Notes under the pieces: model-generated
What the model saw: the letters and a program-made list of their open reading frames with translations, nothing else
Databases searched by the model: none
What the model was told of the DNA's origin: nothing
In this document: positions 17,851 through 59,650 of the stretch, one piece after another
How positions within the stretch are numbered: position 1 is the first letter of the stretch
Layout of the letters: each line of letters opens with the position of its first letter
NCBI GenBank assembly: GCA_020351855.1
Contig: CP070670.1
Span: 1,592,767-1,654,603 of the forward strand
Source: Gemmatimonadota bacterium
GTDB lineage: Bacteria; Gemmatimonadota; Gemmatimonadetes; Palauibacterales; Palauibacteraceae
Length of the DNA stretch: 61,837 nucleotides
Reading direction: 5' to 3'
Translations under genes and position numbers: made by a program

Positions 17851-17891
17851 ACGGTCTGCGGGTGGCCCGCCCACCGTCCCGACGCCGCGGA

Positions 17892-18032: not shown

Positions 18033-18048
18033 TGTTTCACGTGGAACA
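18033..18048. promoter_or_regulatory. parS: parS centromere site 2
   Basis: TGTTTCACGTGGAACA, matches the consensus parS; upstream of parA. Confidence 0.92.
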
Positions 18049-18056
18049 TCCACTGC

Positions 18057-18086
18057 TTGGCGCACGTGGCTCTTCCCCTCTATATT
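18057..18086 (+). promoter_or_regulatory. Putative sigma70 promoter of parAB
   Basis: TTGGCG, 18 nt, TATATT; immediately downstream of parS site 2. Confidence 0.45.
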
Positions 18087-18242
18087 GCCCTCGTCCCGAA
18101 CATCCGCCCCCAACGACCGGCGGTCTCGGCTGTCTTTGTCAGCGAAGAGTAGTCAGGCGTTTCGGCTCAGGTATCCTCGGTCGCCGATCGAGGCCCGCCG
18201 AAATGGCCTCCGGGGCCGCCGGTTGATCCTCCAGAGGAGCTC

Positions 18243-19893: not shown

Positions 19894-19912
19894 AGACTCC
19901 GAGCCGGCCGTC

Positions 19913-20683: not shown

Positions 20684-20730
20684 CGGTCCGCACGGCGCGC
20701 GATCCATCAACGGAAAGGCCGAGAATAACC

Positions 20731-36424: not shown

Positions 36425-36449
36425 CCCAACTCCAGTCTTGGACAATCGA

Positions 36450-38390
36450 ATGCCTGACTTCCGCGAGGCTCTGGACAGCGGCCGCGTGATCCTGCTCGAC
36501 GGTGCCATGGGCACGGAGATCTATCGGCGCGGCATCTTCATCAACCGGTGCTTCGACGAACTGAGCCGCACGGATGAGAATCTAATCCGCGATGTCCACG
36601 CTGAGTACCGCCGGGCCGGTGCGCAGGTCTTGGAGACCAACACCTTCGGCGCGAACCGTTTTCGGCTGCGGGGCTACGGGCTCGAGTCAGAGGTGGGCGA
36701 GGTGAACCGGGCCGGGGCACGCCTGGCCCGCGAGGTGGCGGCGGACGAGCTCTTCGTGGCGGGGAGCATCGGACCGATCGGCGTGCGGCTCGAGCCCTAC
36801 GGGGCCACCTCGCGCGCGGAGGCCCGAGAGGCGTTCCGTGAGCAGGCCGCAGCCCTGGCCGACGGAGGCGTAGACCTGTTCATTCTCGAGACCTTTTCCG
36901 ATCTGGAGGAGATCAGGCAGGCCGTCGCGGGATGTCGCAGTGCCACCGACCTTCCGCTCATCGCGCAGATGACGATTCAGCCCAACGGCGAGACGACCTA
37001 CGGGGACCGGCCGGAGCATATCGCCGAGGAGCTGGAGGGGATGGGGGTGGACGCCCTCGGACTGAACTGCAGCGTCGGTCCGGCGATCATTCTCGGAGCG
37101 ACCCAGCGCCTCGCGCGAGTGACCGATTTGCCCCTGTCGGCCGTTCCAAACGCCGGTCTGCCTCAGGAAGTGCACGGGCGGAAGATCTACCTGGCCGACC
37201 CCGAGTACATGGCAACCTACGCGCGGAAGCTGGTGCTCGCGGGAGCTCGCATCGTGGGCGGCTGCTGCGGCACCACGCCGGCGCACACGCGCGAGATGGC
37301 CAGCCAGATCCGCATCGTGGGGCAGCGCGCCCCGCGCATCAGCGTCCGATCGCCGGGCGTGCCGGCGGGGGCGAGCGCTCAGGATAGGGAAGAGGCGGGG
37401 ATCGTCGATCCGCCTCCGCTGGCCGAACGGTCGGCCTGGGGACGCCGGCTCGCAGCGGGCGAGATGGTCACGAGCGTCGAGATCCTCCCGCCGCGGGGCA
37501 CGGATGCCAGCGGCATGCTGGAAGCCTGCCGCTGGCTGAAGGAGGCGGGCGTTCACGCGGTAAACGTGCCGGACGGGGCGCGCGCGATGATGCGAATGGG
37601 CGTGCTCGCGGCCTCTTCCCTCATCGAGCGGGAGGTCGGGATCGAAACCGTCGTGCATTACTGCTGCCGCGACCGGAACCTCCTCGGCATGATGAGCGAC
37701 CTGATCGGGGCTCAAGCCCTCGGCCTCCGCAACATGCTCCTCATCACGGGCGACCCACCCAAGATGGGCCCGTATCCCGATGCCACGGCGGTCTTCGACA
37801 TCGACTCGGTCGGCCTCACGAACCTCGTGTCGCGTCTCAACCGCGGTCAGGACCTCGGGGGCAACGCCTTGGGCAGCGCCACCTCCTTCGTCGTCGGGGT
37901 GGGGGTCAACCCCGGCGCTGTGGATCTGGATGAGGAGATCGACCACTGGTACTGGAAGGTGAAGGCGGGCGCCGAGTTCGGCGTCACGCAACCGGTGTTC
38001 GACGCGGAGACGCTCGCGACGTTTCTCGAGCGCATAGAGGGCTCGGGTACGCGAATCCCGATCGTGGCCGGCATCTGGCCCCTCGTCAGCCTCCGCAATG
38101 CGGAGTTTCTCAACAGCGAGGTTCCCGGCATCCAGGTTCCCGAGCGATACCTGGAGCGGATGCGGGCCGCCCAGGAACGGGGCAACGAGCACGCTCGGGC
38201 CGAGGGGTGCGCGATCGCGCGTGAGATGCTGGCCGAGGTGCGCGACCTGGTCGAGGGGGTACAGGTGAGCGCTCCGTTCGGGAGAGTGCGGTACGCCCTC
38301 GATGTGTTCGCCGCATTGGACGGCTACCCGAGCCTCGAGGAGCTCGACGAGCGGTTGGGCGATTCGCCCGACCGAGGGGGTGCAGCCTAA
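36450..38390 (+). CDS. Bifunctional homocysteine S-methyltransferase / methylenetetrahydrofolate reductase (YitJ-like)
   Basis: LLDGAMGT, ETNTFGAN, GLNCSVGP, PNAGLP, GGCCGTTP; MTHFR half CCRDRN, ITGDPP, TQPVFD. Confidence 0.95.
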   Translation: MPDFREALDSGRVILLDGAMGTEIYRRGIFINRCFDELSRTDENLIRDVHAEYRRAGAQVLETNTFGANRFRLRGYGLESEVGEVNRAGARLAREVAADELFVAGSIGPIGVRLEPYGATSRAEAREAFREQAAALADGGVDLFILETFSDLEEIRQAVAGCRSATDLPLIAQMTIQPNGETTYGDRPEHIAEELEGMGVDALGLNCSVGPAIILGATQRLARVTDLPLSAVPNAGLPQEVHGRKIYLADPEYMATYARKLVLAGARIVGGCCGTTPAHTREMASQIRIVGQRAPRISVRSPGVPAGASAQDREEAGIVDPPPLAERSAWGRRLAAGEMVTSVEILPPRGTDASGMLEACRWLKEAGVHAVNVPDGARAMMRMGVLAASSLIEREVGIETVVHYCCRDRNLLGMMSDLIGAQALGLRNMLLITGDPPKMGPYPDATAVFDIDSVGLTNLVSRLNRGQDLGGNALGSATSFVVGVGVNPGAVDLDEEIDHWYWKVKAGAEFGVTQPVFDAETLATFLERIEGSGTRIPIVAGIWPLVSLRNAEFLNSEVPGIQVPERYLERMRAAQERGNEHARAEGCAIAREMLAEVRDLVEGVQVSAPFGRVRYALDVFAALDGYPSLEELDERLGDSPDRGGAA

Positions 38391-41579: not shown

Positions 41580-43223
41580 TCAGGAGGCGTCGCGCAGCGT
41601 GCGCATCGCCTCCGCGAAGGCCCTCTTCCTCAGGGCCGGCTTCCAGGCGAAGCCGAGCAGGTTTCCCAGGAAGCCGGCGTCCAACTGACCGATCCGCCAG
41701 CCGACCTCGGCTTCGATCACGCGGTCGAGGACGCGACGGCGATCCGGCTCCAGCGCATCCATGGAAGTGTCGAGCTCGGGTACGTCGTAGGCCGATTCCT
41801 CGTCCGGCTCATAGCTCGTGAGGTCGGCCATCGCGGTCTCGAGAAGCTGCCGGGCATCACGCCGTCCTGCCGCGAAGTCCGCCTCCCTCCATTCCCGGCA
41901 GAACAGGCCGCCGAATCCTCCGAGGAAGTCGCCAGCCAGCCTGCGCCGCGGCGCGATCGTATGGATCGCGAGCGCTTCCTTGTCATCGAGTCCGGCGCTC
42001 GCCTCGATCAGGAAGATGAGCTTGGCCAGGCGGCTACGGGCAGCGCGCGAGCCGATGCGAGCGAGCACTCGGGCGTGGCGGCGCTCGACGCGGGCCAGGC
42101 TCTCCTCGAGCAGCTCCAGAACCGGATCCGCTCCGGCCCTGCCCCGGGCAGGCGATCGTCCCCGTCCTCCCCCACTGTCCGCCAGGCGCGCTTCGCAGAC
42201 CTGCTCGGCCAACTCCCCTACCGACCGGCTGAGCTCGAACTCCTCCGGATCGGTCAGGGGCGCGGCAATCTCCGGCAGGCGCCCGATCAGGGCGTGCACC
42301 AACGCAAGGCGATCGTTCGTTGCCGCAGCCCGCAACCGGTCCCCGGAGCTCCCGTGCTCCGGCAGCGCCTTCGCGAGCAGGCCGGCCACCCGCGCGAACG
42401 AGGTGGGTGGGGCCGCCCCTCCCGGATCGCTCTGGGCGGCAGGCCCAAAGGTCGGGTCGACGACGACATACCGCCAATCATCTTCCGGAGTACCCGTCCG
42501 CACGACGAGCCGCTTGGCGAGTCGGAGCGGTTCGTTGGCGAGCAAACCGCCGTCGCCGTACCACATGTCGATCGCTCCACCGTCCTCCGCGGTCGATCCG
42601 GAGGGGTGGCCGCGAGGTCGCTCCAATCGTCGGGCCGGGAACGCCGGGGGGAAGCTGGTCGCGGCGACCGCCGCCTGAAGCACATCCTGCCAGACCGGCG
42701 CTCCGGCAGCATCCTCGGGACTCAGCCGAAAGGCCACCCAGTCGTCGTAGAGCCGCGCCGCGCCGGGCGGTGCTCCGTCATCCCGTGAACGGGAGCCTGC
42801 CCGGCGCGTCACGCCGTGCAGGCTCGTCAGGGTCATCCCGAGTTCGAAGGGCTGGGCGAGCAGCGATGAGGAGCGGTCGTCCGACGCGGGCTCGGCGGCG
42901 ATCAGCGCGCGACTCATCTTCTCGAGGGCGGACACGTCCAGCAGGGAGGAGCGGGAGCTTCGCTTCTGGTTCAGGAGAACCTCGATGTCCATCCCCCGGA
43001 TCCAGAACGTGCGGATCCAAGGAACCAGGCTCGGATTGACGACCAGCGCCCGCGCCGCCAGCGCTGCGTTCAGGCCCCCGGAGGACACACCGGCCATCAC
43101 GCCGATCTGGGCGCTTGCCCCGCTGTGCTCGTCCGAGAGAGCACGGAAGAGCTCCGTCACGGCACCGGCCGCATACGTCCCGAGCGACCCGCTGCCGCCA
43201 AGGACTAGTGCGATCTTCGTCAT
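41580..43223 (-). CDS. Patatin-like phospholipase
   Basis: LVLGGSGSLG, GVSSG (GxSxG), ATSFPPAF, DGG. Confidence 0.85.
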   Translation of the reverse strand: MTKIALVLGGSGSLGTYAAGAVTELFRALSDEHSGASAQIGVMAGVSSGGLNAALAARALVVNPSLVPWIRTFWIRGMDIEVLLNQKRSSRSSLLDVSALEKMSRALIAAEPASDDRSSSLLAQPFELGMTLTSLHGVTRRAGSRSRDDGAPPGAARLYDDWVAFRLSPEDAAGAPVWQDVLQAAVAATSFPPAFPARRLERPRGHPSGSTAEDGGAIDMWYGDGGLLANEPLRLAKRLVVRTGTPEDDWRYVVVDPTFGPAAQSDPGGAAPPTSFARVAGLLAKALPEHGSSGDRLRAAATNDRLALVHALIGRLPEIAAPLTDPEEFELSRSVGELAEQVCEARLADSGGGRGRSPARGRAGADPVLELLEESLARVERRHARVLARIGSRAARSRLAKLIFLIEASAGLDDKEALAIHTIAPRRRLAGDFLGGFGGLFCREWREADFAAGRRDARQLLETAMADLTSYEPDEESAYDVPELDTSMDALEPDRRRVLDRVIEAEVGWRIGQLDAGFLGNLLGFAWKPALRKRAFAEAMRTLRDAS

Positions 43224-43227: not shown

Positions 43228-44247
43228 TCAGCCTACGCTCCCATCCTCGGGGTCGGGGGGTTCGTCCTCCGCTGGTTCATCCTCCGCCGCTTCCCTCTCC
43301 ACCGCCGCCGGCGTCTGCGGCACCCGTATCTCTAAGACGGTGCTCGCGTCGAGCCGCTCGCCGCCCGCGAAGAAGCTCCAGTGCAGGTGGGGTCCTGTCA
43401 CGCGCCCGGTGGCACCCACCCGGCCGATCACCTGGCCGGTCTCGACAAGATCTCCCTCTCCCACGTCAATCTGCGACAAGTGATAGTATCCGCTGAACAC
43501 GCCCAGGCCATGATCGACGTACACGGCGTTGCCCGCGTAATACAGCTCGCGGGCTATGGCTACCCTTCCCCGGCCGGCTACACGGACCGGCGCTCCGACG
43601 TCTCCCGCCAGGTCCACGCCCCAGTGGCGGCTCTGGACTTCGCCGTTGAAGATGCGCTTCTGGCCGAACGGGCTCGTGATCCGGGTGCTCCGGGGCCGTA
43701 CGAAGTTGCCGTCCAGAAGCCACGCCGGCGAGACCTGCCGGAGCGTGGACCGGACCAGTTCGCGCTCGCGCTCGATCCGCTCCAGGACATCGGCCGGCGG
43801 GCTGGTGAAGCGGGGTGCTACGCTCAGTTCGGTCTCCGAGTAGGCACGAGGTCTCACCGGCACCGTCCAACGCCGGTTCATCGGCTGCCCTCCCGCGGTT
43901 GTGGCTGACACAACAAGCTCGACCGGCCCGGACCGGTCGGTCGGGAGGGCGATGAGCCCGAACCAGGATCCTGCCAGCCGCCCCATGCGCAAAGGCCGAT
44001 CATCCAGCCTCGCCTCGACCTCCAGCAACTCCTCGTCCGCCGGCACCGATACGGTCACGGCAAGCGCCGTCCCGTCGGTCGGGCTGGCGGGTTCCCAGCG
44101 CACGACCAGGGCGTCCGCCGAAGCCGCCTGCCCGAGCGCCGGCCGGGGCCCGAGCACGCACGCCCCCACGCCCAGCACGAGAAAGGCGAGCCGTCCGAAC
44201 CCCTTCGTCGAGCAGGCCCGTGAGCCCTTCCGGCGTTTGCCCTTCAA
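43228..44247 (-). CDS. Exported M23 peptidase
   Basis: ITSPFG, HWGVDLAG, VDHG, YYHL, TGRVTGPHLHW; N-terminal signal. Confidence 0.92.
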   Translation of the reverse strand: MKGKRRKGSRACSTKGFGRLAFLVLGVGACVLGPRPALGQAASADALVVRWEPASPTDGTALAVTVSVPADEELLEVEARLDDRPLRMGRLAGSWFGLIALPTDRSGPVELVVSATTAGGQPMNRRWTVPVRPRAYSETELSVAPRFTSPPADVLERIERERELVRSTLRQVSPAWLLDGNFVRPRSTRITSPFGQKRIFNGEVQSRHWGVDLAGDVGAPVRVAGRGRVAIARELYYAGNAVYVDHGLGVFSGYYHLSQIDVGEGDLVETGQVIGRVGATGRVTGPHLHWSFFAGGERLDASTVLEIRVPQTPAAVEREAAEDEPAEDEPPDPEDGSVG

Positions 44248-48188: not shown

Positions 48189-49622
48189 CTAGATTCCCGG
48201 CCGAACCTGCTCCAGGGCCGAGCGAGCGGCATGATATCCGCACATCCCGTGCACTCCGCCGCCCGGCGGGGTGGACGACGAGCAGAGGAAGACGCCGGGT
48301 AGCGGCGTGCCATAGGGATCCAGCCGCGGAAACGGTCGGGCGAGGATCTGGCGAAGCGTGTTCGCGCCACCCGAGATGTCTCCGCCGACCAGATTCGGGT
48401 TCAGCGCCGCCATGTCTGCCGGACCCAGCCTGCTTCGAGCCAGGATGCAATCCCTGAAGCCCGGTGCGAAGCGCTCCACCTGCGCTTCCAGGCGCTCGGT
48501 CATGTCTCGGCCGCAGGCATGCGGCACGTGGCAGTAAGCCCATGCAGTGTGCCGGCCGCGCGGTGCGCGCCCCGGGTCGAACAGGCTGTGCTGCGCGAGC
48601 AGCACGAACGGCCTGCGGGGAGGACGATCCTTCCAGGCGTCCAGTTCCGCGGCGGCGATCTCCTCGAAGGTCCCACCCAGATGCACCGTGCCGGCCTGCC
48701 GGCACTCCGGCGCGCGCCAGGGGATGGGCTCGCTGAGCGCCCAGTCCACCTTGAACGCTCCGGGGCCGTATCGATAGCGGGCGAGCCGCCTCTTGTAGCT
48801 CCGCGGAAGCTGATCGGCGGCGAGCTTGAGGAGCTGCCCCGGGGTCACGGAGAGCAGCTTGATCCCGGCCTCCGGCAGATCGTCCAGGTGCCGAACCGGC
48901 CGGCCGGTGGCGACTCGTCCTCCGAGCCCCAGGAGAATCGCGGCCAGGCCGTCGGCCAGCCGCTGAGCTCCACCCCGCGGGAAGGGCCAGCCGACGCCAT
49001 GTCCGAGGACCGCGAGGAGCAGGCCGATGGCGGCGCTGGGCCTGAACTCGAGCGGGATTGCGGAGTGCCCGGCAAGGCCCGCCAGGAGTGCCCGCGCGCG
49101 CTTCCCGGCGAATTCGTCCGCCCAGTCCCGGGCCGACCGGGCCGCGACCCGCGCGAAGCGCGCATGCCGCACGGGATGCCGGATCAGGCCGCGCGGGCTC
49201 AGGAGGTCGGTCAGCAGCGCCTGCCAATCCTCGGTCAGGGGTTCGAGGAGGCGGCGGTACCTCGCGCCGTCCTCCGCGCCCAGGCCATCGCAGGTCTCCG
49301 TGAGCGAGCGGCTGAGCAGGACCGCCGTGCCATCGTCCAGCGGGTGGGCCAGAGGGGCGCTCGGATGCACCCAGCGAACCCCCTGCGCTGCCAGGTCAAG
49401 GCTGCGCAGGAAGGGCGAGGCCACGCCGAGCGGGTGAATCGCCGAGCAGAGGTCGTGCCGGAATCCCGGCAGGGTGAGCTCCAGCGTGCGAAGCCCGCCT
49501 CCCGCGGTCTCGTTCCCTTCGAGCAGGACGACGCGGCGGCCCGCCTGCGCGAGCACGATCGCCGCGGAGAGACCGTTCGGCCCGGAGCCGACGACCACCG
49601 CGTCAGGTTCCTGTTCGCTCAT
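48189..49622 (-). CDS. Phytoene-dehydrogenase-like FAD-dependent oxidoreductase (COG1233 type)
   Basis: VVGSGPNGL, GFRHDLCSAIHP, PRGGAQ, WAYCHVP, NPNLVGGDI, CSSSTPPGGGVHGMCG. Confidence 0.9.
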   Translation of the reverse strand: MSEQEPDAVVVGSGPNGLSAAIVLAQAGRRVVLLEGNETAGGGLRTLELTLPGFRHDLCSAIHPLGVASPFLRSLDLAAQGVRWVHPSAPLAHPLDDGTAVLLSRSLTETCDGLGAEDGARYRRLLEPLTEDWQALLTDLLSPRGLIRHPVRHARFARVAARSARDWADEFAGKRARALLAGLAGHSAIPLEFRPSAAIGLLLAVLGHGVGWPFPRGGAQRLADGLAAILLGLGGRVATGRPVRHLDDLPEAGIKLLSVTPGQLLKLAADQLPRSYKRRLARYRYGPGAFKVDWALSEPIPWRAPECRQAGTVHLGGTFEEIAAAELDAWKDRPPRRPFVLLAQHSLFDPGRAPRGRHTAWAYCHVPHACGRDMTERLEAQVERFAPGFRDCILARSRLGPADMAALNPNLVGGDISGGANTLRQILARPFPRLDPYGTPLPGVFLCSSSTPPGGGVHGMCGYHAARSALEQVRPGI

Positions 49623-49692
49623 CCGATTGCCGCGGTCACTCGCCTCGGGTAGCTTCCCGTGCTCCGCTCTGCCACTGGAAAGGTCACACGTC

Positions 49693-50874
49693 ATGCACGT
49701 TTTCGCTAAGTGCGAGAACTTCACGACATCCCGCGAGCTCCGCGCGATCGGCCTGTATCCCTACTTCCAGCCGATCGAGGAGTCGTGCGACACGACTGTC
49801 GTCATCGGGGGCGAGCGGAAGGTCATGGTAGGATCCAACAACTACATGGGCCTCACGCACGATCCGAGGATTCTAGAGGCCGCCAGGCATGCGCTCGATC
49901 GCTACGGCAGCGGCAATACGGGAAGCCGCTTTCTCAACGGAAACCTGGATCTTCACGACCGACTCGAGGGCGAGCTCGCCGACTTCGTCGGCAAGGAGGC
50001 GGCCCTCGTGTTCAGCACCGGATACCTCACCAACCTGGGCACGCTGGCGGCCCTGATCGGACGAAACGACACAGTGTTCGTCGACAAGCTGGATCACGCG
50101 TGCATTCAGGACGGCGCCCGGCTCGGATTCGGGCAGGTCCAGCGGTTCAACCACGGGGACTACGACAAGCTGCGGCAGATGCTGGCAGCGGAGAAGGAGG
50201 AGCGCGGCAAGCTCGTCGCGGTGGACGGCGTGTACAGCATGGAGGGCGATATAGCCGACCTGCCGACCCTTGTCCGGCTGTCCTCCGATTTCGGAGCCGG
50301 GCTGGTGGTGGATGATGCCCACTCCCTCGGCGTGGTCGGGCCACGCGGGAACGGGACGGCGGCCCACTTCGGCCTGACCGAGGAAGTGGACCTGATCACC
50401 GGTACGTTCTCGAAGTCCTTCGCGTCGATCGGGGGCTTCGTGGCCGGCACGGCGACGATCTGCGAGTATCTGCGCAACAACGCCCGGGCACTGATCTTCA
50501 GCGCGAGCATGCCTCCCGCCGCCGTCGCCACGGTCCTCAAGGCCCTCGAGATCATTCGTGACGAGCCCGAGAGGCGGGAGCAGCTGTGGAAGAACACGCG
50601 GAAGATGATGGAGGGCTTCCGCGCGATCGGCTTCGAGATCGGCCCGACCGAGACCCCGATCATACCGATCCTTGTCGGACCGATGGACAAGACCTTCCGC
50701 TTCTGGCGCGAGCTCTTCGATGCCGGGGTGTTCACCAATCCCGTCGTGCCGCCCGCCGTTCCCGAGGGAAGCTGCCGGCTCCGGACGAGCTATATGGCCA
50801 CCCACACCGACGAACAACTGGACTTCGTGCTCGAGTGCATCGAGAGGATCGGCAAGAAGCTCCAGGTCGTGTGA
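49693..50874 (+). CDS. spt: Serine palmitoyltransferase (PLP-dependent alpha-oxoamine synthase)
   Basis: YPYF, GSNNYMGL, GSRFLNG (SPT-type, unlike KBL SVRFICG), DHAC, DDAHS, GTFSKS, PPAVP; genomic context. Confidence 0.88.
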   Translation: MHVFAKCENFTTSRELRAIGLYPYFQPIEESCDTTVVIGGERKVMVGSNNYMGLTHDPRILEAARHALDRYGSGNTGSRFLNGNLDLHDRLEGELADFVGKEAALVFSTGYLTNLGTLAALIGRNDTVFVDKLDHACIQDGARLGFGQVQRFNHGDYDKLRQMLAAEKEERGKLVAVDGVYSMEGDIADLPTLVRLSSDFGAGLVVDDAHSLGVVGPRGNGTAAHFGLTEEVDLITGTFSKSFASIGGFVAGTATICEYLRNNARALIFSASMPPAAVATVLKALEIIRDEPERREQLWKNTRKMMEGFRAIGFEIGPTETPIIPILVGPMDKTFRFWRELFDAGVFTNPVVPPAVPEGSCRLRTSYMATHTDEQLDFVLECIERIGKKLQVV

Positions 50875-50896
50875 CCCCCTCCAGCCCGGCTCGTCC

Positions 50897-52066
50897 GTGA
50901 ATCAGGCGGCCCCCGTAAGAGCCGTTCAGGCAGAGCATTCCGGATCCGTCAGCGTCATCGCGGCGTGCCCGCGCAGCGACGAGATGGAGGCATTCATCCG
51001 CCTTCCCTGGTCGATCTACGAGGGGTATCCGCTGTGGGTGCCGCCGCTCCTCCGCGACATGCGTCTGATGATGGATCCGGAGCGCCATCCGTTCTACCGG
51101 CACTCCGATGTGCAGGCTTTTCTGGCGCTCCGTGGGGGCCGTCCGGTAGGCCGGATCGCGGCCATCCACAACCGGCGGCACATCGAGTTCCAGGAAGAGA
51201 ACACCGGCTTCTTCGGCTTCTATGAGTGCGAGCCGGACGACACGGCGTCGAACGCCCTTCTGGATGCCGCCGCGGACTGGCTGCGCGAGCGTGGCATCGG
51301 CACCATGCGAGGGCCGACGAGCTTCTCGACGAACGAGCAGGTCGGCCTGCTGGTCGAAGGCTTCGACGATCCGCCCTCGGTGATGATGAACTACAATCCC
51401 CCGTACTACGAGGGGCAGTTCCAGGGCTATGGCCTCAAGGTGTCCCAGCGCCTCGTCGCCTACTTCCTCCATGCGCCCGCGCCCCCGGAGTATCTCGTGC
51501 GGGCGGCCCGGGTCGTGGAACGGCGCACCGGAGTCCGGCTTCGGAGCCTGAGCAAGCGCCACTTCGGTCGCGATCTGGAGATCATTCGGGACCTGTACAA
51601 CTCGGCCTGGGAGCGCAACTGGGGATTCGTCCCCATGACGGATGACGAGATCGATCACATGGCCCAGGAGCTGAAGCCCGTCGTCGATCCACGCCTGGCG
51701 CTCATCGGAGAGGATGAGAACGGCCGTCCGGTCGGGTTCGCCCTCGCCCTGCCCGATTTCAACCAGGTGCTCCGGCACCTGAACGGCCGTCTCTTGCCCT
51801 TCGGCCTGCTCAAGGCTCTGTGGCTTCGTCGGAAGATCGATCGGCTGCGAGTCCTCACGCTGGGTGTCCACGACGACTATCGGGGGAAGGGACTCGACGC
51901 GCTCTTCTATCTCGCCATCTTCCGCGGCGGAAACTCGCAGGGCATCGATCGGGGCGAGTTCTCTTGGGTGCTCGCGGAAAACGCCCGGATGAGGAAGCCG
52001 CTCGAACGGATGGGCGCCCGAGTCTACAAGCGCTACAACCTGTATGATGTGTCGCTCCAGGCCTGA
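50897..52066 (+). CDS. GNAT-family protein, bacterial ceramide synthase (bCerS)-like
   Basis: FIRLPWSIY, WVPPL, GRIAAI, GFFGFYE, GP.SFSTNE.VGLLVEGF, YNPPYY, WGFVP, EFSWVLAEN; 22 bp after spt. Confidence 0.82.
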   Translation: MNQAAPVRAVQAEHSGSVSVIAACPRSDEMEAFIRLPWSIYEGYPLWVPPLLRDMRLMMDPERHPFYRHSDVQAFLALRGGRPVGRIAAIHNRRHIEFQEENTGFFGFYECEPDDTASNALLDAAADWLRERGIGTMRGPTSFSTNEQVGLLVEGFDDPPSVMMNYNPPYYEGQFQGYGLKVSQRLVAYFLHAPAPPEYLVRAARVVERRTGVRLRSLSKRHFGRDLEIIRDLYNSAWERNWGFVPMTDDEIDHMAQELKPVVDPRLALIGEDENGRPVGFALALPDFNQVLRHLNGRLLPFGLLKALWLRRKIDRLRVLTLGVHDDYRGKGLDALFYLAIFRGGNSQGIDRGEFSWVLAENARMRKPLERMGARVYKRYNLYDVSLQA

Positions 52067-52113
52067 CGCGGGCCCGATCAGGCCGCCGCGCTGGCCCCGC
52101 CCGTGAGCTCGAC

Positions 52114-53073
52114 GTGAGCCGGCGCCGTGTCCTGATCACGGGTGCGACAGGCTTTCTCGGCAGCCATGTCGCGGCACTCTGGGTGAAGTCGGGCCATCGG
52201 GTTCGCTGCACCCTGCGCTCGACCAGCGACACCCGCTGGCTGGAGGGCCTGGATGTGGAGCGCGTGGAGTGGGACGCCCGGGAGGGAGAACGTCTGGATG
52301 CCGCCCTGCGCGGCATCGACACCGTGGTGCATGTCGCTGGCGTGACGCGGGCGCCCCGCAGGGAGGACTACTTCCGTGTGAACGCGACGGGTGCCGGTCG
52401 ACTGGCGGAAGCGGCGGCATCCGCCGGCGTGTCGCGGTTCGTTCTCGTAAGCAGCCTCGCGGCTCGCGGGCCGGACGGCGGCACCGGTCCCGTGAGCGCT
52501 TACGGTGAGAGCAAGCGGCGCGGCGAGGATCTGGTTCGCCTGTTCGAGTCGCGCATGGAGGTCGTCATACTGCGGCCGGGAGGGATCTACGGTCCGCGGG
52601 ATACGGACCTTTTCCCCCTCTTCGATACGGCGAGCAAGGGCTGGTTGGTCGCACCTGCGGGCAGTCCGCCGCTGCAGCCGGTTTACGTGACCGATGTCGC
52701 CCGCCTGACAGTCGCTGCGGGGACGGTGACCCAGCCGGGCGTCGGGCCTTACCCGGTGGCGGAGCCGGGACGCTACGGGTGGTCGGAGGTCCGCGAGGGC
52801 CTCGCCGCGGCGCTGGGGCGACGGGTGCGGGGAGTCCGGCTTCCCAAGGCGATCTTCATCCTCGCGGGCATCATCGCCGAGGCCGGCGCAAGGCTGACCG
52901 GAACCGATCCGGTCCTGGACCGCCGGAACGCCGTGGATCTGAGTCGACACGGCTGGACCTGCGACACGACCCCCACCTGCGACGCGTTCGGCTGGGAGGC
53001 CGAGGTCGCCCTGCGCGATGGACTGGCTCTGACCGCGGACTGGTACCGACGCGTCGGCTGGCTGAAGGCCTAG
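52114..53073 (+). CDS. SDR epimerase/dehydratase, ceramide reductase (CerR)-like
   Basis: TGATGFLG, HVAG, FVLVSSLAAR, YGESK, RPGGIYGPRDT, TADWYRRVGWL; context. Confidence 0.78.
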   Translation: MSRRRVLITGATGFLGSHVAALWVKSGHRVRCTLRSTSDTRWLEGLDVERVEWDAREGERLDAALRGIDTVVHVAGVTRAPRREDYFRVNATGAGRLAEAAASAGVSRFVLVSSLAARGPDGGTGPVSAYGESKRRGEDLVRLFESRMEVVILRPGGIYGPRDTDLFPLFDTASKGWLVAPAGSPPLQPVYVTDVARLTVAAGTVTQPGVGPYPVAEPGRYGWSEVREGLAAALGRRVRGVRLPKAIFILAGIIAEAGARLTGTDPVLDRRNAVDLSRHGWTCDTTPTCDAFGWEAEVALRDGLALTADWYRRVGWLKA

Positions 53074-53097
53074 CGGTCAGGGCCGAGGAGAGGCTGG

Positions 53098-53958
53098 ATG
53101 AAGGGAGGCTCGGGCCTGCTGGCGATCGATCGTGTGGCGATCGGCTATCTGGCCCTCAGCGGTTCGCTCGCTCTGACTGGCGGCCTGCCCGGTCTGGCGC
53201 TCGCCTCCCTTCACGGAGCGGCGATCCTCCTGATCCTGCGCTTGGCCCGGAGACCCCTCCCATCGGGCCGGGTGGCCACGTTTGTCCGGCTGCTCTACCC
53301 GGTGATCGCGACGCCCCTCCTCTACCACGAGATCTCCATTCTCAACCGATTCATCTTTCCCGACTACTTCGACCCCATCGTGCAGGGCTGGGAGCTTGCC
53401 CTGTTCGGGTCGCAGCTGAGTCAGGAGCTCGCCGGCCGCCTCCCCGCGCTCTGGTTGTCCGAGTTCATGACACTCGGCTACCTGACCTACTACTTCCTCA
53501 TACCTCTGCTAGGGATCGCGGCCTGGCGCGCCGGGGGACGTGCCGGCTTCCATCGCTTCGCCGTCTCCGTGGCCCTCGCCTTCGTGGTCTGCTACGTCTG
53601 GTTCATCCTTTTCCCGGTGATGGGTCCGCGGTACTGGTACGGGGCCCTGGAGGGGGCGCTTTCGGAGGGCACCTTCAATCGTTTCGCCCGCGACCTCCTC
53701 GAGAGCGGCTCGTCGAAGGGCACCGCATTTCCGAGCTCCCACGTCGCCGCCACCTGCGCGGCCTGGGTCGCGGCGGCCCGCGAAGATTTGCGGCCGTTTT
53801 TTCTGGCCTCCGTGCCCGTGGCCACCCTCGCGATCGGCACGGTCTGGGGAGGATATCACTACGCTGTGGACGCTTCCGCCGGCATCCTCGTCGCCGCGGC
53901 CGTCCTTTCGGTCGCGCCTCGAGTGGCTGCCTCTGCGCCGGTGCCGCCCGACCTCTAA
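53098..53958 (+). CDS. PAP2-superfamily membrane protein, AUR1/inositol-phosphoceramide-synthase-like
   Basis: About 6-7 TM, FPVMGPR, AFPSSHVA, GGYHYAVD (His/His/Asp triad). Confidence 0.82.
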   Translation: MKGGSGLLAIDRVAIGYLALSGSLALTGGLPGLALASLHGAAILLILRLARRPLPSGRVATFVRLLYPVIATPLLYHEISILNRFIFPDYFDPIVQGWELALFGSQLSQELAGRLPALWLSEFMTLGYLTYYFLIPLLGIAAWRAGGRAGFHRFAVSVALAFVVCYVWFILFPVMGPRYWYGALEGALSEGTFNRFARDLLESGSSKGTAFPSSHVAATCAAWVAAAREDLRPFFLASVPVATLAIGTVWGGYHYAVDASAGILVAAAVLSVAPRVAASAPVPPDL

Positions 53959-54052
53959 CTTCTTCTTGTTGCTCGCTTCGCTCGGGGAGGCACGGGCGAG
54001 CCCGTTCCGCGGCGGGTCGATTCTCGCACGCTGACGTGCGGAGGTACCGACG

Positions 54053-54361
54053 ATGGAGTCACTGGAGATCCTCGCGCCGGCCATCATCACCGTCATCCTG
54101 ATCCTGACGGTGGGCGCCGTGGTCCTTCTCAGGCCCCTGTCGAAGCAGGGAGCGGCGCTGCTCGAACAGATGCTCAAGGACCGCAGGGAGGGCCGGGAAG
54201 GCCATCAGGTCGAGCATCTGACGGGCGCACTGGCGAACCTGTCGGACCGGGTGAGCCTGCTGGAGGAGAGGCTCACGTTTACGGAGTCGCTGATCGAGGC
54301 TCAACCAGGCGGGCGTGCCAGGATAGCGTCTGGCGCGGACGCGCCGCCGCCGGATGATTGA
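54053..54361 (+). CDS. Small single-TM coiled-coil protein (PspB-like architecture)
   Basis: GGAGG SD, one TM helix, then LSDRVSLLEERLTFTESL heptads. Confidence 0.7.
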   Translation: MESLEILAPAIITVILILTVGAVVLLRPLSKQGAALLEQMLKDRREGREGHQVEHLTGALANLSDRVSLLEERLTFTESLIEAQPGGRARIASGADAPPPDD

Positions 54362-54386
54362 GGGGCCCGGCATTCGCGCCGCACGG

Positions 54387-54412
54387 GCAACCCTAGCGGA
54401 CCGTCGTGCGTC
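54387..54412 (+). promoter_or_regulatory. Putative ECF-type autoregulatory promoter
   Basis: GCAACC, 16 nt, CGTC; 28 nt upstream of the ECF sigma start; fits the generic AAC/CGT ECF pattern. Confidence 0.5.
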
Positions 54413-54440
54413 GAAATAGCGGACTCAGAAAAGGACTCGG

Positions 54441-54995
54441 GTGGAAGAGCGGGCACTCGTAGACCGCGCCAAGGCCGGCGACCGCATCGCGATGGGTGAG
54501 TTGTACCAGGCACACGCGCGGCGCGTGTACGCCGTGGTCCGGCGGCTGGCGGGCGATGACGATCTGGCGGCGGACCTGTCGCAGGACGCGTGGGTGCGGG
54601 CGTTCGAGCGCCTGCACCTCTATCGCGGCGATGCGGCATTCGGGACGTGGATCCACCGCCTGGCGACGAACGTGGCTCTCAATCGGCTGCGGAGAAGGAC
54701 GAAGCGACCGGAAGTGGAGCGTGCGGCCCTCGGCATGCCGACGTACGAGAAACCGTCCGATGATGCGGTGATCAGCCGTCGAATGTTGAGCGAGGCGCTG
54801 GACAGGCTGCCGGAAGGATATCGACGGGTGCTGTTGCTGCACGATGTCGAGGGCTGGACGCACGAGGAGATTGGGGAGTCGCTCGGCATCGCCTCCGGGA
54901 CTTCCAAATCACAACTTCACAAGGCGAGGGCGCGGATGCAGCAGTTGATCGCGCCTGCACCCCTGGCCGAAGAAGCAGGAAACGGCTTGACATGA
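54441..54995 (+). CDS. ECF RNA polymerase sigma factor
   Basis: DLSQDAW, FGTWIHRLATN, LPEGYR, EGWTHEEI...GTSKSQLHKAR. Confidence 0.95.
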   Translation: MEERALVDRAKAGDRIAMGELYQAHARRVYAVVRRLAGDDDLAADLSQDAWVRAFERLHLYRGDAAFGTWIHRLATNVALNRLRRRTKRPEVERAALGMPTYEKPSDDAVISRRMLSEALDRLPEGYRRVLLLHDVEGWTHEEIGESLGIASGTSKSQLHKARARMQQLIAPAPLAEEAGNGLT

Positions 54996-55684
54996 GCGAG
55001 ATGAAGTCCGAACACCTGACGCTCGAGATGATCTCGTTGCTGCTCGAGGAGCCCGAGGCGCAGGCAGAGGCCGCGGCGCACGTTGCGGTTTGCGAGCTCT
55101 GCAGCAGCGAGCACGCGCGAATGCGTCGCATGCTGATGGCGCTGTCGGCGCTCGGAGAGATGGAGCCGCCGGCCGGCGAATGGGAGCGCATCGAGGCGAG
55201 CCTGCCGCGTCGGCGGGACGTTCTGGCGCTGCGTCCGGCGAGCCTGTTCACGGGCTGGCCCGCGCAGGCAGCCGCCGCCATGCTCGTGTTCGCGGGCGGA
55301 ATCGCAGCCGGCCTGATGATCATGGGCGGTCCCGCGGATGCGGACCGAGTGGCTGACAGGGGGTCGATCCCCACCATCGATGAGCCGGTGGCGAGCCGGC
55401 CCGTCACGACACCGGTCTCCGAGGAGTACTACCGGGCGGTGGCCGGACTCGAGCAGCTGAGAGCCCAGCCGCCTGGCTCCGGAGAGCTCCTGCAGAATCC
55501 GGCGGCAGCCGCCGAGCGGCTCGCGCGTCTCGACGCGCTCATCCTGGCGTCGCGTGAGGCGCTGGATGCATCCCCGACCGATCCGGCGGTGAACAATCTT
55601 CTGTTCGAGCTCGTGGAGGAGCGGGATGAGTTGGCGGCCGGTGTTGCGGGTGCCGTCCGCATGGCGGGACTGGAATACCGGTAG
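54992..55684 (+). CDS. Zinc-binding (ZAS) membrane anti-sigma factor
   Basis: ATGA overlap with the sigma gene; HVAVCELC (Hx3Cx2C), one TM helix, helical periplasmic domain. Confidence 0.85.
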   Translation: MSEMKSEHLTLEMISLLLEEPEAQAEAAAHVAVCELCSSEHARMRRMLMALSALGEMEPPAGEWERIEASLPRRRDVLALRPASLFTGWPAQAAAAMLVFAGGIAAGLMIMGGPADADRVADRGSIPTIDEPVASRPVTTPVSEEYYRAVAGLEQLRAQPPGSGELLQNPAAAAERLARLDALILASREALDASPTDPAVNNLLFELVEERDELAAGVAGAVRMAGLEYR

Positions 55685-55730
55685 GATCGGGTCAATCGAC
55701 GTGCGCCGGAGGGGTTGGACTAGAAGGAAG

Positions 55731-56945
55731 ATGATGACGTTTCGCCTGACCGTTCTTTCGATCGGCTGCGTCCTCGCGCTCGCGACGGCTGCGGGTCCGT
55801 CGGGGCCGAGAAGCCTGCTCGCCCAGCAGCCGTCGCCGGACGCTCCGCCTCCTCCACGCGCTGGCAGTCCGCAGGACGCGCCTTCCCGGCCCGAGGCGCC
55901 GAAGGCGTGGCTCGGGGTCGGCCTGGAGAAGCGACAGGAGTGTCGGGCGGACGCGCCCGGTGAATGCCGGGTGATCCTCGTGATCAGTTCCGTCGTCGTC
56001 GGCAGCCCGGCCGAGGCGGCGGGCGTCGAGGTGGGAGATCTTCTGGTGTCGCTCGATGCCGCCGCGCCGGGGACCAGCGAGTTTCAGACGGGGCTGGACG
56101 GCCTCGAGGTCGGTCGGGCCGTCGTGCTCGAGGTGAGGCGCGACGGACGCACCGTAGGCCTGGAGGTCATGCCGGCGCCGCGACCGCCCAAGCCGGTGCA
56201 GGTCAAAACGCGGCCGAGCGCGGTGTGGGCCTGGAAGACGCCCGAGGGCGAAGTCAAGATCCCGATCCACATCGAGCCCCGCGACTCGACCGGAGCAACG
56301 GTCTGGTCGTATGGAGACGAGGGCGAAGGGTACGTGATCGTCGTTCCGAGCGAGGACGGATGGCGGGTGCAGGTGCTGGGGGAGAATGCGGAAGGCGAGG
56401 GCCGCGAGGCGTTGCCCGGCCTGAGCATCGAGCTCCGAGACCTCGAACGACACCTGGAGGGCGTTGAAGAGGAGATGGCGCGCGCGGCGCGAGAGCAGGT
56501 GAGGTACTGGGGGCGCGTTAAGGCGGAGCTCGGGCCGGAGATGGCGGCGCTGCGTGACTCCGTTCTGGCGGAAGCCCGCGCCAAGCTTGCCGAGGTTCGG
56601 GAAGCCCGAAAAGCCTATCGAACCGAGGAGGCAAGGATCCGATACGAGAGGTCACCGCACCTCGTCGAGATCACGCGCCGGATCGCGGGAGCGGAATTCG
56701 AGCCACTCGGCACCGATCTCGAACATGACGGTCAAGAAAAGGGTTTGCTGGTGCTGCGCGTGATTCCCGGCACGCCGGCCTTCGACCTCGGCCTCCGGCG
56801 CGGCGATGTCGTGGTCGAGGTGGCAGGAGCCGAGTGCAGTTCCGTCTCGGACCTGCGGGCCGCCCTCGTCGATCCAGGCGGGGAGAGCGTGCAGGTGAAG
56901 TGGATCCGCAAGGGGGAAGTCATGACGGGGGCCCTCAACGACTGA
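55731..56945 (+). CDS. Exported tandem-PDZ protein without protease domain
   Basis: Signal peptide; PDZ1 WLGVG...GSPAEAAGVEVGD; coiled coil; PDZ2 GLLVLRV.PGTPA..LGLRRGDVV; no trypsin GxSGG motif. Confidence 0.8.
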   Translation: MMTFRLTVLSIGCVLALATAAGPSGPRSLLAQQPSPDAPPPPRAGSPQDAPSRPEAPKAWLGVGLEKRQECRADAPGECRVILVISSVVVGSPAEAAGVEVGDLLVSLDAAAPGTSEFQTGLDGLEVGRAVVLEVRRDGRTVGLEVMPAPRPPKPVQVKTRPSAVWAWKTPEGEVKIPIHIEPRDSTGATVWSYGDEGEGYVIVVPSEDGWRVQVLGENAEGEGREALPGLSIELRDLERHLEGVEEEMARAAREQVRYWGRVKAELGPEMAALRDSVLAEARAKLAEVREARKAYRTEEARIRYERSPHLVEITRRIAGAEFEPLGTDLEHDGQEKGLLVLRVIPGTPAFDLGLRRGDVVVEVAGAECSSVSDLRAALVDPGGESVQVKWIRKGEVMTGALND

Positions 56946-57089
56946 GGCCCGGCCGCCCCACAGGTCGGTTTCCCAGCCGACGCTCGGCCTCTCGTAGCTC
57001 GCCGCCACCCGTCCCACGCTGCTGCTGGGGCACGCTGCGAGCGCGACCATGCCCTGTCGCCTCCGTTTCGGTGACCTGATCTTGCCCTC

Positions 57090-58232
57090 ATGCAGGATGA
57101 CGCTGACCCACCCGGGGGCGAGCCGGAGGGTTTCCGGGTCCTGGCCGACGAACTGAAGCGCGAGTTCCGGAGCTGGATGTCGGATCCCGTCGTGTGGCCG
57201 GCCGAGCGCGTGGACGAACTGGCGCGTCGGACGTTCGCCTTGCAGGTCTCCGGCAACCGAGCCTACGGGAGCTACTGCCGCCGCCTCGGGGTGGCCCCAC
57301 CCGCCGTCCATGGCTGGCGCGACGTGCCGCCGGTTCCGACGGCGGCGTTCCGCGAGGTACCCCTCGTTGTCGGGGAGCCGCGCGATGCCGTGCTCGAGTT
57401 TCGCACGAGCGGCACGACGCGCGGTTCGCAGCGGCGCGGATATCACCTCGTGCGCGATCCCGAGCTGTACCGAGCCTCACTCACGGCGACCTTCTATCGC
57501 TTCGTCATCACCAAGGCGGCGGGCCGAGGTCGCCTGCCTATCGCATCGCTCGTGCCGCCGTTCGACCAGGCGCCGCACTCTTCGCTCTCCTGGATGGCCG
57601 ATGCCGTGGTCGAGCGGTTCGGGACCCGGAACTCGGAGTGTTTCGCAGCGGGAGCGGGGGTGGACTGGCCGGGTGCCGGGCGCTTCCTCGCCCGTGCCGA
57701 GGAACGCGGGAAGCCCGTGTGCCTGTTCGGGACGACGCTGGCGTTCGACGAGTGGACGCGGAGGTTGATGGAAACGGGACGGCGGTTTCGGCTGCCGGAC
57801 GGCTCCGTCGCAATGGACACGGGCGGTTCAAAGGGACGCGACTACCTGATCCGTGACGAGGTGGTGGCGCGGCTGCACTCCTGCCTGGGGCTGCCCCCCG
57901 GCAATGTCGTCAACGAGTTCGGGATGACGGAGCTTCTGTCCCAGCGATACGGCACCCCCGAGGCTTTGGTCGCCCCTCCCTGGCTGCGGACGCGGTCGCT
58001 GGACCCGGTGACTCTCGAGGAGCTGCCGGAAGGGGAGACGGGGATCCTGAACCACTTCGACCTGGCGAACGCGGGCAGCGTGTGCAGCGTGCTCACCGAG
58101 GATCTCGGCTCGGTGGCGGGCGGGAGGGTGCGATGGGAGGGCCGGGTGCCCGGCGCGCCCCCGCGGGGCTGCTCTCTGGCCACGGCGGACCTCCTGCGTT
58201 CGCAGACGGGGACGGTGGGGGAGGATCGATGA
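57090..58232 (+). CDS. LuxE-family acyl-protein synthetase
   Basis: FRTSGTT, MDTGGSKG, NEFGMTELLSQRY, PPWLR, DLAN..SV..VLTEDLG, C-terminal acylation motif PRGCS. Confidence 0.9.
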   Translation: MQDDADPPGGEPEGFRVLADELKREFRSWMSDPVVWPAERVDELARRTFALQVSGNRAYGSYCRRLGVAPPAVHGWRDVPPVPTAAFREVPLVVGEPRDAVLEFRTSGTTRGSQRRGYHLVRDPELYRASLTATFYRFVITKAAGRGRLPIASLVPPFDQAPHSSLSWMADAVVERFGTRNSECFAAGAGVDWPGAGRFLARAEERGKPVCLFGTTLAFDEWTRRLMETGRRFRLPDGSVAMDTGGSKGRDYLIRDEVVARLHSCLGLPPGNVVNEFGMTELLSQRYGTPEALVAPPWLRTRSLDPVTLEELPEGETGILNHFDLANAGSVCSVLTEDLGSVAGGRVRWEGRVPGAPPRGCSLATADLLRSQTGTVGEDR

Positions 58233-59650
58233 CAGAGGAGAACGCCGAGATCCGCGGCGGTCGTCGCTCCGTCTTCCACCTACCCGGGCTCGATCCCGGG
58301 CCCCGGATGAGTTCCGGGTGGTTCGAGGGGGCGACTCCGGCCGGCCTTCGTTTCCGCGCGCCCAACCTGACGAGCGAGGGCGCGTCGCGGGCAGCCGATC
58401 GGGTCTCGGAGGCGGCAGCGTTGGCTCAGCGGCACCGGACGCTCGCGCAGGTCGTCAGCGCCGCGGCCGAGGCTGCGGGGAGGCTTGTCGATCCCACCTC
58501 CTGCGCGGGAAGCGAAGCCCTCCAGGTACTGCGCGAGGAACTCGCCTGGCCGGAGTCCGTGGCTCGAGAAACGCTGCTCGGGATGGGCCGGATTTGGACC
58601 GAACAGGCCCTGTGGGAGGTGATCCGGTCGGAGCTTCCGGATCCCGCCGTGCTGGAGGGCTTCAGCCCCTCCAGCGAGTCGCGGGCGCGACGCGCTTCCG
58701 GACCCCGGCTTCTGCTGCAGGTCGTGTCCGCCAATGTGCCGGGCGTTGCGGTGACGGGAGTCATCCGGGCCCTGCTCTGTCGCTCGGGCGTCCTCGTCAA
58801 GCTGCCGGAGGACGGGCCCGGGCTGGTCGTGCTTTTCGCGCGATTGCTGGCCGAGGCGGATCCGGTGCTCGGAGACGCCGTTGCCGCCACCTGGTGGCCT
58901 TCAGCGCTCGAATGCCCGCTCTGGCAGACGTGGGTGGCCCGCGCCTCCCGAATCGTAGTGTACGGAGGAAAGGCCGCCGTAGAGGGCGTGCGCGGGCGTG
59001 CGCGGACCGATCAGGACGTCCTGGCATACGGACCGAAACTGGGCGTTGCCGTCGTGCTGCCGGATATGGATCTGGCGCCCGCAGCGCGGGGGCTGGCACG
59101 GGACATCTGCGCCTACGAGCAGCAGGGGTGCGTGTCCCCGCGCCTGATCTTCACCCTCGGCCCCCCGGCCGAGCTCGCCCAGGAGCTGGCGCCCGCCCTG
59201 TCCGGCGAAGTGGCACGTCTGGGGCTGCCGCCTCTTCGGCCCGAAGAGGCCGTGGCCATCCGATCGCTCCGCGCCGAAGTCGAGTTCCGAGGCTACGGCG
59301 GTAGCGCGAGCCGGGTCGTGGCGAGCGGGGAGGACCTCGCTTGGACGATACTGATCGACGACCCGCCCAGCCTCGAGAGCGTTTCCCTGCCACGCGTGGT
59401 GCGGCTGTCGCACATCGGCTCGGTTGAGGCGCTGCGCGAGTCCCTGCGGCCGCTGGAGGGCCGCATTCAGGTCCTCGGGTACGCCGGCGGCGGAGGGCAG
59501 CTCGCGCTCCTGGCCGAAGCGGCCGCAGCCCTGCGCGTGAGCCGGATCACGCCCGTGGGCCGAATGGCCTGGCCGCCGGCCGATTGGCGCCATGACGGTC
59601 GCTTCCAGCTGCTCCCCCTTCTCGACTGGACGGAGTGGGAAGTGGAGTGA
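58229..59650 (+). CDS. LuxC-family acyl-CoA/acyl-protein reductase
   Basis: ATGA overlap with luxE-like gene; SANVPG, VLVKLP, VVYGG..AV, AYGPKLG, DICAYEQQGCVSP (catalytic Cys), HDG. Confidence 0.9.
   Translation: MTEENAEIRGGRRSVFHLPGLDPGPRMSSGWFEGATPAGLRFRAPNLTSEGASRAADRVSEAAALAQRHRTLAQVVSAAAEAAGRLVDPTSCAGSEALQVLREELAWPESVARETLLGMGRIWTEQALWEVIRSELPDPAVLEGFSPSSESRARRASGPRLLLQVVSANVPGVAVTGVIRALLCRSGVLVKLPEDGPGLVVLFARLLAEADPVLGDAVAATWWPSALECPLWQTWVARASRIVVYGGKAAVEGVRGRARTDQDVLAYGPKLGVAVVLPDMDLAPAARGLARDICAYEQQGCVSPRLIFTLGPPAELAQELAPALSGEVARLGLPPLRPEEAVAIRSLRAEVEFRGYGGSASRVVASGEDLAWTILIDDPPSLESVSLPRVVRLSHIGSVEALRESLRPLEGRIQVLGYAGGGGQLALLAEAAAALRVSRITPVGRMAWPPADWRHDGRFQLLPLLDWTEWEVE

Follow-up and report, generated by a model that had tools for sequence, protein, structure and literature searches.

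A conserved four-gene block in a Gemmatimonadota chromosome predicted to direct ceramide and phosphosphingolipid synthesis

A 61,837-nucleotide stretch of DNA from a Gemmatimonadota bacterium (GenBank assembly GCA_020351855.1, contig CP070670.1, positions 1,592,767 to 1,654,603; hereafter the window) carries four consecutive genes that we consider likely to be a chromosomal sphingolipid operon, with products predicted to make ceramide and to convert it to a phosphosphingolipid by way of an Aur1-like enzyme. Ceramide synthesis by the first three genes, which encode homologues of a serine palmitoyltransferase (Spt), of a bacterial ceramide synthase (bCerS) and of a ceramide reductase (CerR), is well supported by their relationship to characterised proteins, and the fourth gene points to a phosphosphingolipid as the product. 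The four open reading frames (ORFs) are as follows.

49693-50874, + strand: spt (gene 1), ORF of 393 aa
50897-52066, + strand: bcerS (gene 2), ORF of 389 aa from GTG 50897, or 360 aa from the alternative ATG 50984
52114-53073, + strand: cerR (gene 3), ORF of 319 aa
53098-53958, + strand: PAP2_3 Aur1-like gene (gene 4), ORF of 286 aa

Genes 1 to 4 share the + strand and are separated by gaps of 22, 47 and 24 bp. Their third-position G+C content (0.81-0.86) matches that of other real genes of this ~68% G+C sequence, and Pfam assigns them, in order, to Aminotran_1_2, to GNAT (weakly), to Epimerase/3beta-HSD/NAD_binding_10 and to PAP2_3. An earlier sequence-only reading of this DNA had described the four co-directional genes, the spacing and a set of signature motifs, all of which were recovered in the ORFs and their translations. 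It had also named the products as an SPT-type alpha-oxoamine synthase (AOS), bCerS, CerR and an AUR1-like PAP2 protein, names that agree with the comparisons below.

Full-length homologues of Caulobacter crescentus Spt (CCNA_01220), bCerS (CCNA_01212) and CerR (CCNA_01222) are encoded by genes 1, 2 and 3, at 41%, 37% and 35% identity, respectively, and the Caulobacter proteins searched against the whole window return exactly the cluster genes. Caulobacter references were obtained by using published cloning primers for ccna_01212, ccna_01222 and ccna_01220 (PMC11087976 supplement) as exact DNA patterns against public contigs. The bcerS reference is the 1155-nt ORF of Caulobacter vibrioides DSM 9893 bounded by primers EK1199 and EK1200, and the spt forward primer led to metagenome contigs bearing spt, cerR and bcerS, the source of the Spt and CerR references. 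When metagenomes were scanned for the reverse primer published for cerR, there was no match because the primer is one A short of the contig: EK1174 and EK1309 read CCCAAAATATC, and a Caulobacter-like metagenome contig (L012, ~2320-2353) reads CCCAAAAATATC.

The gene 1 protein clusters with serine palmitoyltransferases (SPTs) that have been characterised, apart from Kbl and BioF, and is closest to the Bacteroidota (CFB) type, an assignment supported by sequence scores, conserved residues and a tree. The translation matched PF00155 (Aminotran_1_2) at 186.7 bits and contains the GSRFLNG and GTFSKS motifs. Its best match in the PDB was the SPT of Sphingobacterium multivorum (3a2b; 440 bits), with Sphingomonas SPTs at 290-298 bits, versus 252 for KBL, 236 for BioF, 236 for cysteate-C-fatty acyltransferase, 200 for 5-aminolevulinate synthase and 144 for CqsA. 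Identity to 3a2b is 52%, ungapped over 386 aa in proteins of equal length. When aligned to SPT structures, the GTFSKS motif with the pyridoxal phosphate lysine, DHA(C/S)I, VDDAHS and the C-terminal Arg in RLRTS all match their SPT equivalents. Among NCBIfam models SerpalmtaseCFB scored best (527 bits), with BetaP SPT at 403, bioF at 388, Kbl at 360 and AlphaP SPT at 326 bits. A small neighbour-joining tree of AOS proteins (378 ungapped columns, 200 bootstraps; HemA, CqsA and the cysteate enzyme left out) split an Spt clade including gene 1 from E. coli Kbl and BioF with 99% bootstrap support, and joined gene 1 to the S. multivorum SPT and a Rubrobacter homologue with 97.5%. The PDB and NCBIfam scores and the 99% split argue against a grouping of this protein with KBL or BioF. 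Of characterised proteins, the S. multivorum enzyme (PDB 3a2b, 8guh) is the nearest to gene 1, in keeping with the position of Gemmatimonadota within the FCB group. In Bacteroidota, spt is reportedly not clustered with bcerS and cerR (PMC11334938), whereas in the window all three are adjacent.

Gene 2 is supported as a full-length homologue of the genetically defined Caulobacter bCerS and is predicted to N-acylate a sphingoid base. The two proteins align end to end over 368 of 389 aa (E 1e-69), and the Pfam GNAT match is weak (27.7 bits versus a cut-off of 20.7). The FIRLPW, GFFGFYE, YNPPYY and WGFVP motifs are all present in the translation, and an alignment of 11 homologues from three phyla has 45 invariant columns. 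Translation could begin at GTG 50897 or ATG 50984, with no in-frame start codon between them. Gene callers applied to public contigs with an identical bCerS chose ATG 50984, giving 360 aa and a 109-bp gap. GTG 50897 is the more likely start because ~15 residues upstream of the ATG 50984 Met (an 'SV[IL]' stretch) are conserved in homologues, including Caulobacter bCerS. This GNAT family is large, with 8644 representative clusters at E<=1e-3, and includes E. coli YghO (34% identity). Ceramide production is not known in E. coli, and because YghO belongs to the family, membership by itself is no proof of substrate. No cultured species was found among the best 120 bCerS matches, all with at least 52% identity, and a PDB sequence search with gene 2 yielded nothing useful and no solved bCerS structure. 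Public annotations of bCerS and CerR homologues are uninformative because NCBIfam has no model for either family; Caulobacter bCerS itself returned 0 hits, and the results for the Caulobacter proteins are as empty or sub-threshold as those for the window proteins. RefSeq names the bCerS-family proteins of Roseomonas (L006, 12031-13182) 'dATP pyrophosphohydrolase', a name that looks wrong. Natural AOS-GNAT fusions of ~650-780 aa were seen in three representative proteins (from P0127, P0230, P0238, P0121), and one 784-aa protein carries two tandem bCerS-type domains.

Gene 3 is supported as an NDUFA9-like extended short-chain dehydrogenase/reductase (SDR) and CerR homologue, predicted to reduce the 3-keto group of the ceramide precursor. 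The match to Caulobacter CerR spans the full length (319 aa, E 9e-40), and it is the best of the three extended SDRs in the window, scoring 129 bits versus 56 and 44 for the other two. The translation contains VSSLAAR, IYGPRDT and DWYRRVGWL, together with a Rossmann GATGFLG and a catalytic S...YGESK (YxxxK) read from the sequence. Its top PDB matches are NDUFA9/NUEM-type subunits of complex I, and CerR has been described as NDUFA9-like (PMC11087976).

Gene 4 most likely works like Aur1 and is predicted to be a ceramide phospho-head-group transferase, without assignment as an inositol phosphorylceramide (IPC) synthase. It encodes a polytopic membrane protein that matches PF14378 (PAP2_3) at 56.2 bits (cut-off 27), and a good Shine-Dalgarno sequence, GGAGAGG, precedes ATG 53098. 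Homologues occur almost only in Gemmatimonadota metagenome-assembled genomes (MAGs). H215, H254, Y255 and D258 are invariant in 23 of them, within FPSSH and HYxxD, and an FPVxGPRY motif is also present. An AlphaFold model of high confidence (pLDDT 93.4, pTM 0.91) was compared with the PDB by Foldseek. At E<1e-3 it matched only yeast Aur1 (9ivc_A, 9vj4_A), over the full length (~286 columns) with a TM-score of 0.61-0.63 and 18-19% identity in the structural alignment; a sphingomyelin-synthase-related protein reached 0.39. Yeast Aur1, the catalytic subunit of IPC synthase, shares with gene 4 this overall fold and the His-His-Asp motifs, whose residues we take to be those of the Aur1 catalytic site. 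Aur1 in yeast requires Kei1, and no Kei1-like partner is known for gene 4. A bacterial precedent is BT_1522 of Bacteroides thetaiotaomicron, an Aur1 homologue proven to be a phosphoinositol-dihydroceramide synthase (PMC9246714). BT_1522 presumably belongs to the same Pfam family as gene 4 and lies in an inositol-lipid cluster, whereas gene 4 lies in the predicted ceramide operon.

A pathway can be proposed from these assignments and from what is established for the enzyme families. Condensation of L-serine with a long-chain acyl thioester by Spt would produce 3-ketodihydrosphingosine, bCerS would N-acylate this base, and CerR would reduce the 3-keto group to yield dihydroceramide. The gene 4 product would then take a phospho-head group from a glycerophospholipid and attach it to the C1 hydroxyl of ceramide, so that diacylglycerol is released and a phosphosphingolipid formed. 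Acylation followed by reduction is taken from the proposal for Caulobacter, and the last two ceramide steps could occur in the opposite order. Of the earlier claims about product, ceramides stand on three enzymes homologous to characterised ones, and the phosphosphingolipid is retained as a prediction; acylation before reduction, which had been taken as established, is one of two published orders (PMC11087976). Substrates, reaction order, co-transcription and head group are likewise predicted here from homology and gene arrangement. Candidate head groups are phosphoethanolamine, phosphoglycerol and phosphoinositol. The first two are at least as likely as the third because the window has no gene for inositol-phosphate synthase (MIPS) or phosphatidylinositol (PI) synthase, and because the reported polar lipids of cultured marine Gaopeijia strains are phosphatidylethanolamine (PE), phosphatidylglycerol (PG), diphosphatidylglycerol and an aminolipid, with PI not reported (PMC11651109).

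The AOS-GNAT-SDR-PAP2_3 order is kept in five further loci (L001, L004, L025, L026 and L027) and in four contigs with a bCerS identical to that of the window (L021-L024). Carriers include a Gemmatimonadales MAG, in which proteins 1 to 3 have 93%, 79% and 80% identity, a lineage where these values are 78%, 54% and 48%, a Palauibacterales MAG and two further lineages, so that the block recurs in Gemmatimonadota genomes down to ~54% bCerS identity. Adjacent genes overlap by 4-13 bp, stop and start codons included, in L001, L025 and L027. Recurrence of the same block in many independent contigs argues that the arrangement is not due to chance. One locus, L020, has the permuted order SDR-AOS-GNAT-PAP2_3 and unrelated flanks, with identities to the window of 60% (AOS), 51% (GNAT), 42% (SDR) and 36% (PAP2_3). 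This locus argues that the linkage of gene 4 to the ceramide genes is functional and not only a matter of inherited order.

Several observations weigh against a phosphosphingolipid operon. Gene 1 falls short of every NCBIfam SPT cut-off, scoring 527 of 640 bits (CFB), 403 of 500 (BetaP) and 326 of 670 (AlphaP), with each cut-off being clade-specific; the genuine Spt of Caulobacter is also below the AlphaP value (514 < 670). On the CFB model Caulobacter Spt scored 358, Sphingomonas SPT 342, E. coli Kbl 348 and E. coli BioF 247 bits. The gene 1 score thus lies between those of true CFB members and non-SPTs, as would be expected for an unsampled phylum. Direct sequence similarity of gene 4 to Aur1 is not significant: a profile of the gene 4 family aligned to yeast Aur1 over 222 positions, with FPAAPPWY, AFPSLH and HHYFVDLMAG matched, at E 0.45, and phmmer of gene 4 against the PDB gave no match. 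The link to Aur1 rests for that reason on Pfam, motifs and predicted fold. Genes for an acyl carrier protein (ACP), an acyl-ACP synthetase, inositol-phosphate synthase and PI synthase were all missing from the window, as was an Lpt paralogue. Co-transcription is suggested by spacing and synteny, and regulatory signals did not add to it: a scan of 49000-57200 for sigma-70-type promoters, which does not cover Gemmatimonadota promoter types, gave 0 matches, and terminator-like sites in the same interval (3 versus 2.8 expected) were not above chance. Finally, the block is part of a wider stretch of synteny in this phylum (patatin, M23 peptidase, sigma factor, PDZ protein), and its linkage could in part reflect inherited gene order.

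Two other explanations were considered. Genes 1-3 could make ceramide while gene 4 acts as a lipid phosphatase, with ceramide-1-phosphate, a sphingoid-base phosphate, phosphatidylglycerol phosphate, undecaprenyl pyrophosphate or lipid A phosphate as substrate. Membership of the PAP2 superfamily is consistent with such a role, as are weak profile matches in the PDB to the phosphatases PgpB, YodM and LpxE (E ~0.02) and the annotation of gene 4 homologues as 'membrane-associated phospholipid phosphatase'. Moreover, Caulobacter reportedly makes its phosphosphingolipid by a ceramide kinase route and not with an Aur1-like enzyme (PMC10331486, PMC11324152). We nevertheless judge a phosphatase unlikely. 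The gene 4 fold matches significantly and at full length only Aur1, PAP2 phosphatases reaching TM-scores of 0.3-0.44, and the cluster has no ceramide kinase gene. Hydrolytic PAP2 enzymes have a C1 KxxxxxxRP motif and a C3 Arg that are also missing from the gene 4 family, which has FPxxxPxY, AFPSxH and HYxVDxxAG in common with Aur1. Both the gene 4 family and Aur1 are without KxxxxxxRP and the SR dipeptide of SRxxxxxHxxxD, whereas the aligned PgpB phosphatase has both, reading 'SRLLLGMHWPRD' in the alignment (the SR...H...D form).

The other explanation concerns gene 1, which could use alanine, glycine or cysteate and so give a 1-deoxy- or sulfono-type lipid comparable to the capnine of Bacteroidota. 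AOS enzymes of other specificity are close relatives (the cysteate-C-fatty acyltransferase structure scores 236 bits), gene 1 is below the NCBIfam equivalog cut-off, and Spt can also take alanine (PMC11334938). We regard this as very improbable, since a characterised SPT is a far nearer match to gene 1 (440 bits, 52% identity) than the cysteate enzyme, Kbl or BioF, and gene 1 is linked to bCerS and CerR, like true Spt genes. In addition, an Aur1-like transferase would need the C1 hydroxyl that only a serine-derived base provides. A sulfonolipid assignment of gene 1, as a cysteate acyltransferase, was rejected on the same scores. Serine-based ceramide synthesis followed by Aur1-type head-group transfer is the interpretation that we favour.

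Linkage of the ceramide genes extends to other phyla and, together with the AOS-GNAT fusions, independently supports their functional connection. Outside the lineage of the window, identities are highest for a plasmid-borne, uncharacterised AOS-GNAT-SDR cluster in the actinobacterium Rubrobacter radiotolerans (49%, 40% and 54%), which has the same spt-bcerS-cerR order and, as its fourth gene, a sulfatase-type protein of the lipoteichoic acid synthase family instead of PAP2_3. Sphingomonas parapaucimobilis has a bCerS-family GNAT beside genes for an ACP, an SPT, LptF/G and an NAD(P)H-binding protein (a CerR-like SDR); its SPT matches that of S. paucimobilis at 80 of 82 residues of a test fragment. 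The Roseomonas GNAT locus has an ACP, an spt-type gene, LptF/G-family permease genes, a fatty acyl-AMP ligase and an epimerase-type SDR. Caulobacter and the window have in common a GNAT-type synthase and an NDUFA9-like reductase, both unrelated to the eukaryotic enzymes. The Caulobacter genes are spread over ~9 kb with a dedicated ACP, an acyl-ACP synthetase and LptF/G paralogues, whereas those of the window are contiguous. The Caulobacter head group, phosphoglycerate, is built via ceramide kinase; the window differs in its Bacteroidota-type Spt and in the Aur1-like gene that it carries. In Prevotella sp. oral taxon 299 (NC_022111.1; L028, 5684-7696) a CerR-like SDR (27% identity, E 1e-38) is followed, 3 nt on, by a PAP2_3 gene with 28% full-length identity to gene 4, which may be a Bacteroidota head-group locus related to that of the window. 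Genes for an NTP-transferase and a HAD hydrolase lie nearby in a record that is unannotated there.

For genes 2 and 4 the nearest homologues are in MAGs that bear the names Gemmatimonadales, Longimicrobiales, Candidatus Palauibacterales or Gemmatimonadota, which bears out the phylum proposed from sequence; Palauibacterales is an order of Gemmatimonadota, in the FCB group. Soils, sediments and the sea hold members of this phylum in abundance, but few have been brought into culture and little has been described of their envelope lipids. The compact, conserved operon predicts sphingolipids in many of them, probably in the outer membrane, with relevance to the interpretation of lipid biomarkers and to envelope biology. 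Novelty is smaller than the sequence-only reading implied: the pathway itself is not new, and a genomic capacity to make sphingolipids had been predicted first for 9 phyla and later for ~40 bacterial phyla (PMC11334938). In our literature search, which did not cover the published ~40-phylum lists themselves, we found no paper meaningfully linking Gemmatimonadota to sphingolipid synthesis, SPT or ceramide. Somewhat new are the close and conserved association of three ceramide genes with an Aur1-like gene and the clustering of a Bacteroidota-type Spt with bCerS and CerR. The picture of a widespread bacterial Spt/bCerS/CerR pathway is extended, not changed. The four-gene unit would be convenient for heterologous reconstitution and offers a candidate gene for an Aur1-type bacterial phosphosphingolipid synthase.

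Other features of the window mentioned above or flanking the block are listed here.

32970-34154 and 35489-36514, - strand: two other extended-SDR (epimerase-family) genes, ~16-19 kb upstream, with 56 and 44 bits to CerR
41580-43223 and 43228-44247, - strand: genes for a patatin-like phospholipase and an M23 peptidase, respectively, upstream and syntenic with the block in L001, L025, L026 and L027
49623..49692, no strand: presumed operon promoter region, the 70 intergenic bp that separate spt from the divergent FAD oxidoreductase gene upstream (- strand, ATG 49622)
54053-54361, + strand: small membrane ORF of 102 aa that starts with a hydrophobic helix and has no match in Pfam, kept only in the closest relatives (L001-L003, L021-L024)
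54441-54995, + strand: extracytoplasmic function (ECF) sigma factor by Pfam, downstream
54992-55684, + strand: putative anti-sigma factor with no Pfam match, downstream
~55626-56945, + strand: two-PDZ protein by Pfam, downstream
57090-58232, + strand: LuxE-like acyl-protein synthetase (PF04443/PF05893 Pfam search), downstream
58082-59650, + strand: LuxC-like acyl-CoA reductase (PF04443/PF05893 Pfam search), downstream

The block lies in the chromosome core, ~40 kb from dnaA. A replication-origin neighbourhood occupies 7235-21234 of the window, with dnaN, dnaA, yidC, mnmE, mnmG, parA, parB, an M23 peptidase and bactofilin, and G+C composition is even. An origin of the cluster on a mobile element was rejected on the presence of dnaA, dnaN, yidC, mnmE, mnmG, parA and parB and the even G+C. 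Searches for inverted repeats, Rfam families and tRNA genes found none. The divergent FAD oxidoreductase (48189-49622, - strand) was considered as a fifth member of the pathway, for example a desaturase, and rejected: it is kept only in the closest relative, L001 (70% identity). It is absent upstream of the block in L004, L026 and L027, and L025 has a different, Pyr_redox-type flavoprotein there. The FAD protein found upstream of the Rubrobacter cluster shares no homology with the oxidoreductase of the window.

Downstream, the trio of sigma factor, anti-sigma factor and PDZ protein follows the four genes in L001, L004, L025, L026 and L027. It could be an envelope-stress module that regulates or senses the lipid, or plain synteny; because the trio is absent from the permuted L020, its link to the lipid genes may be phylum-level synteny only. 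A more ambitious proposal is that gene 4 founds a clade of bacterial ceramide phospho-head-group transferases, using PE or PG to make ceramide phosphoethanolamine or ceramide phosphoglycerol, and that the block belongs to a larger envelope-lipid module under the control of the sigma/anti-sigma/PDZ trio and linked to the LuxE/LuxC-like pair. We hold this combined claim to be speculative, with a low chance of being correct. No bacterial gene for the synthesis of ceramide phosphoethanolamine or phosphoglycerol from PE or PG was found in the literature searched. The LuxE-like gene is present downstream in L001, L025, L026 and L027, and not in L004 or L020. The LuxE-like and LuxC-like genes of the window are a fatty-acid reductase pair carried by a bacterium that is not luminous.

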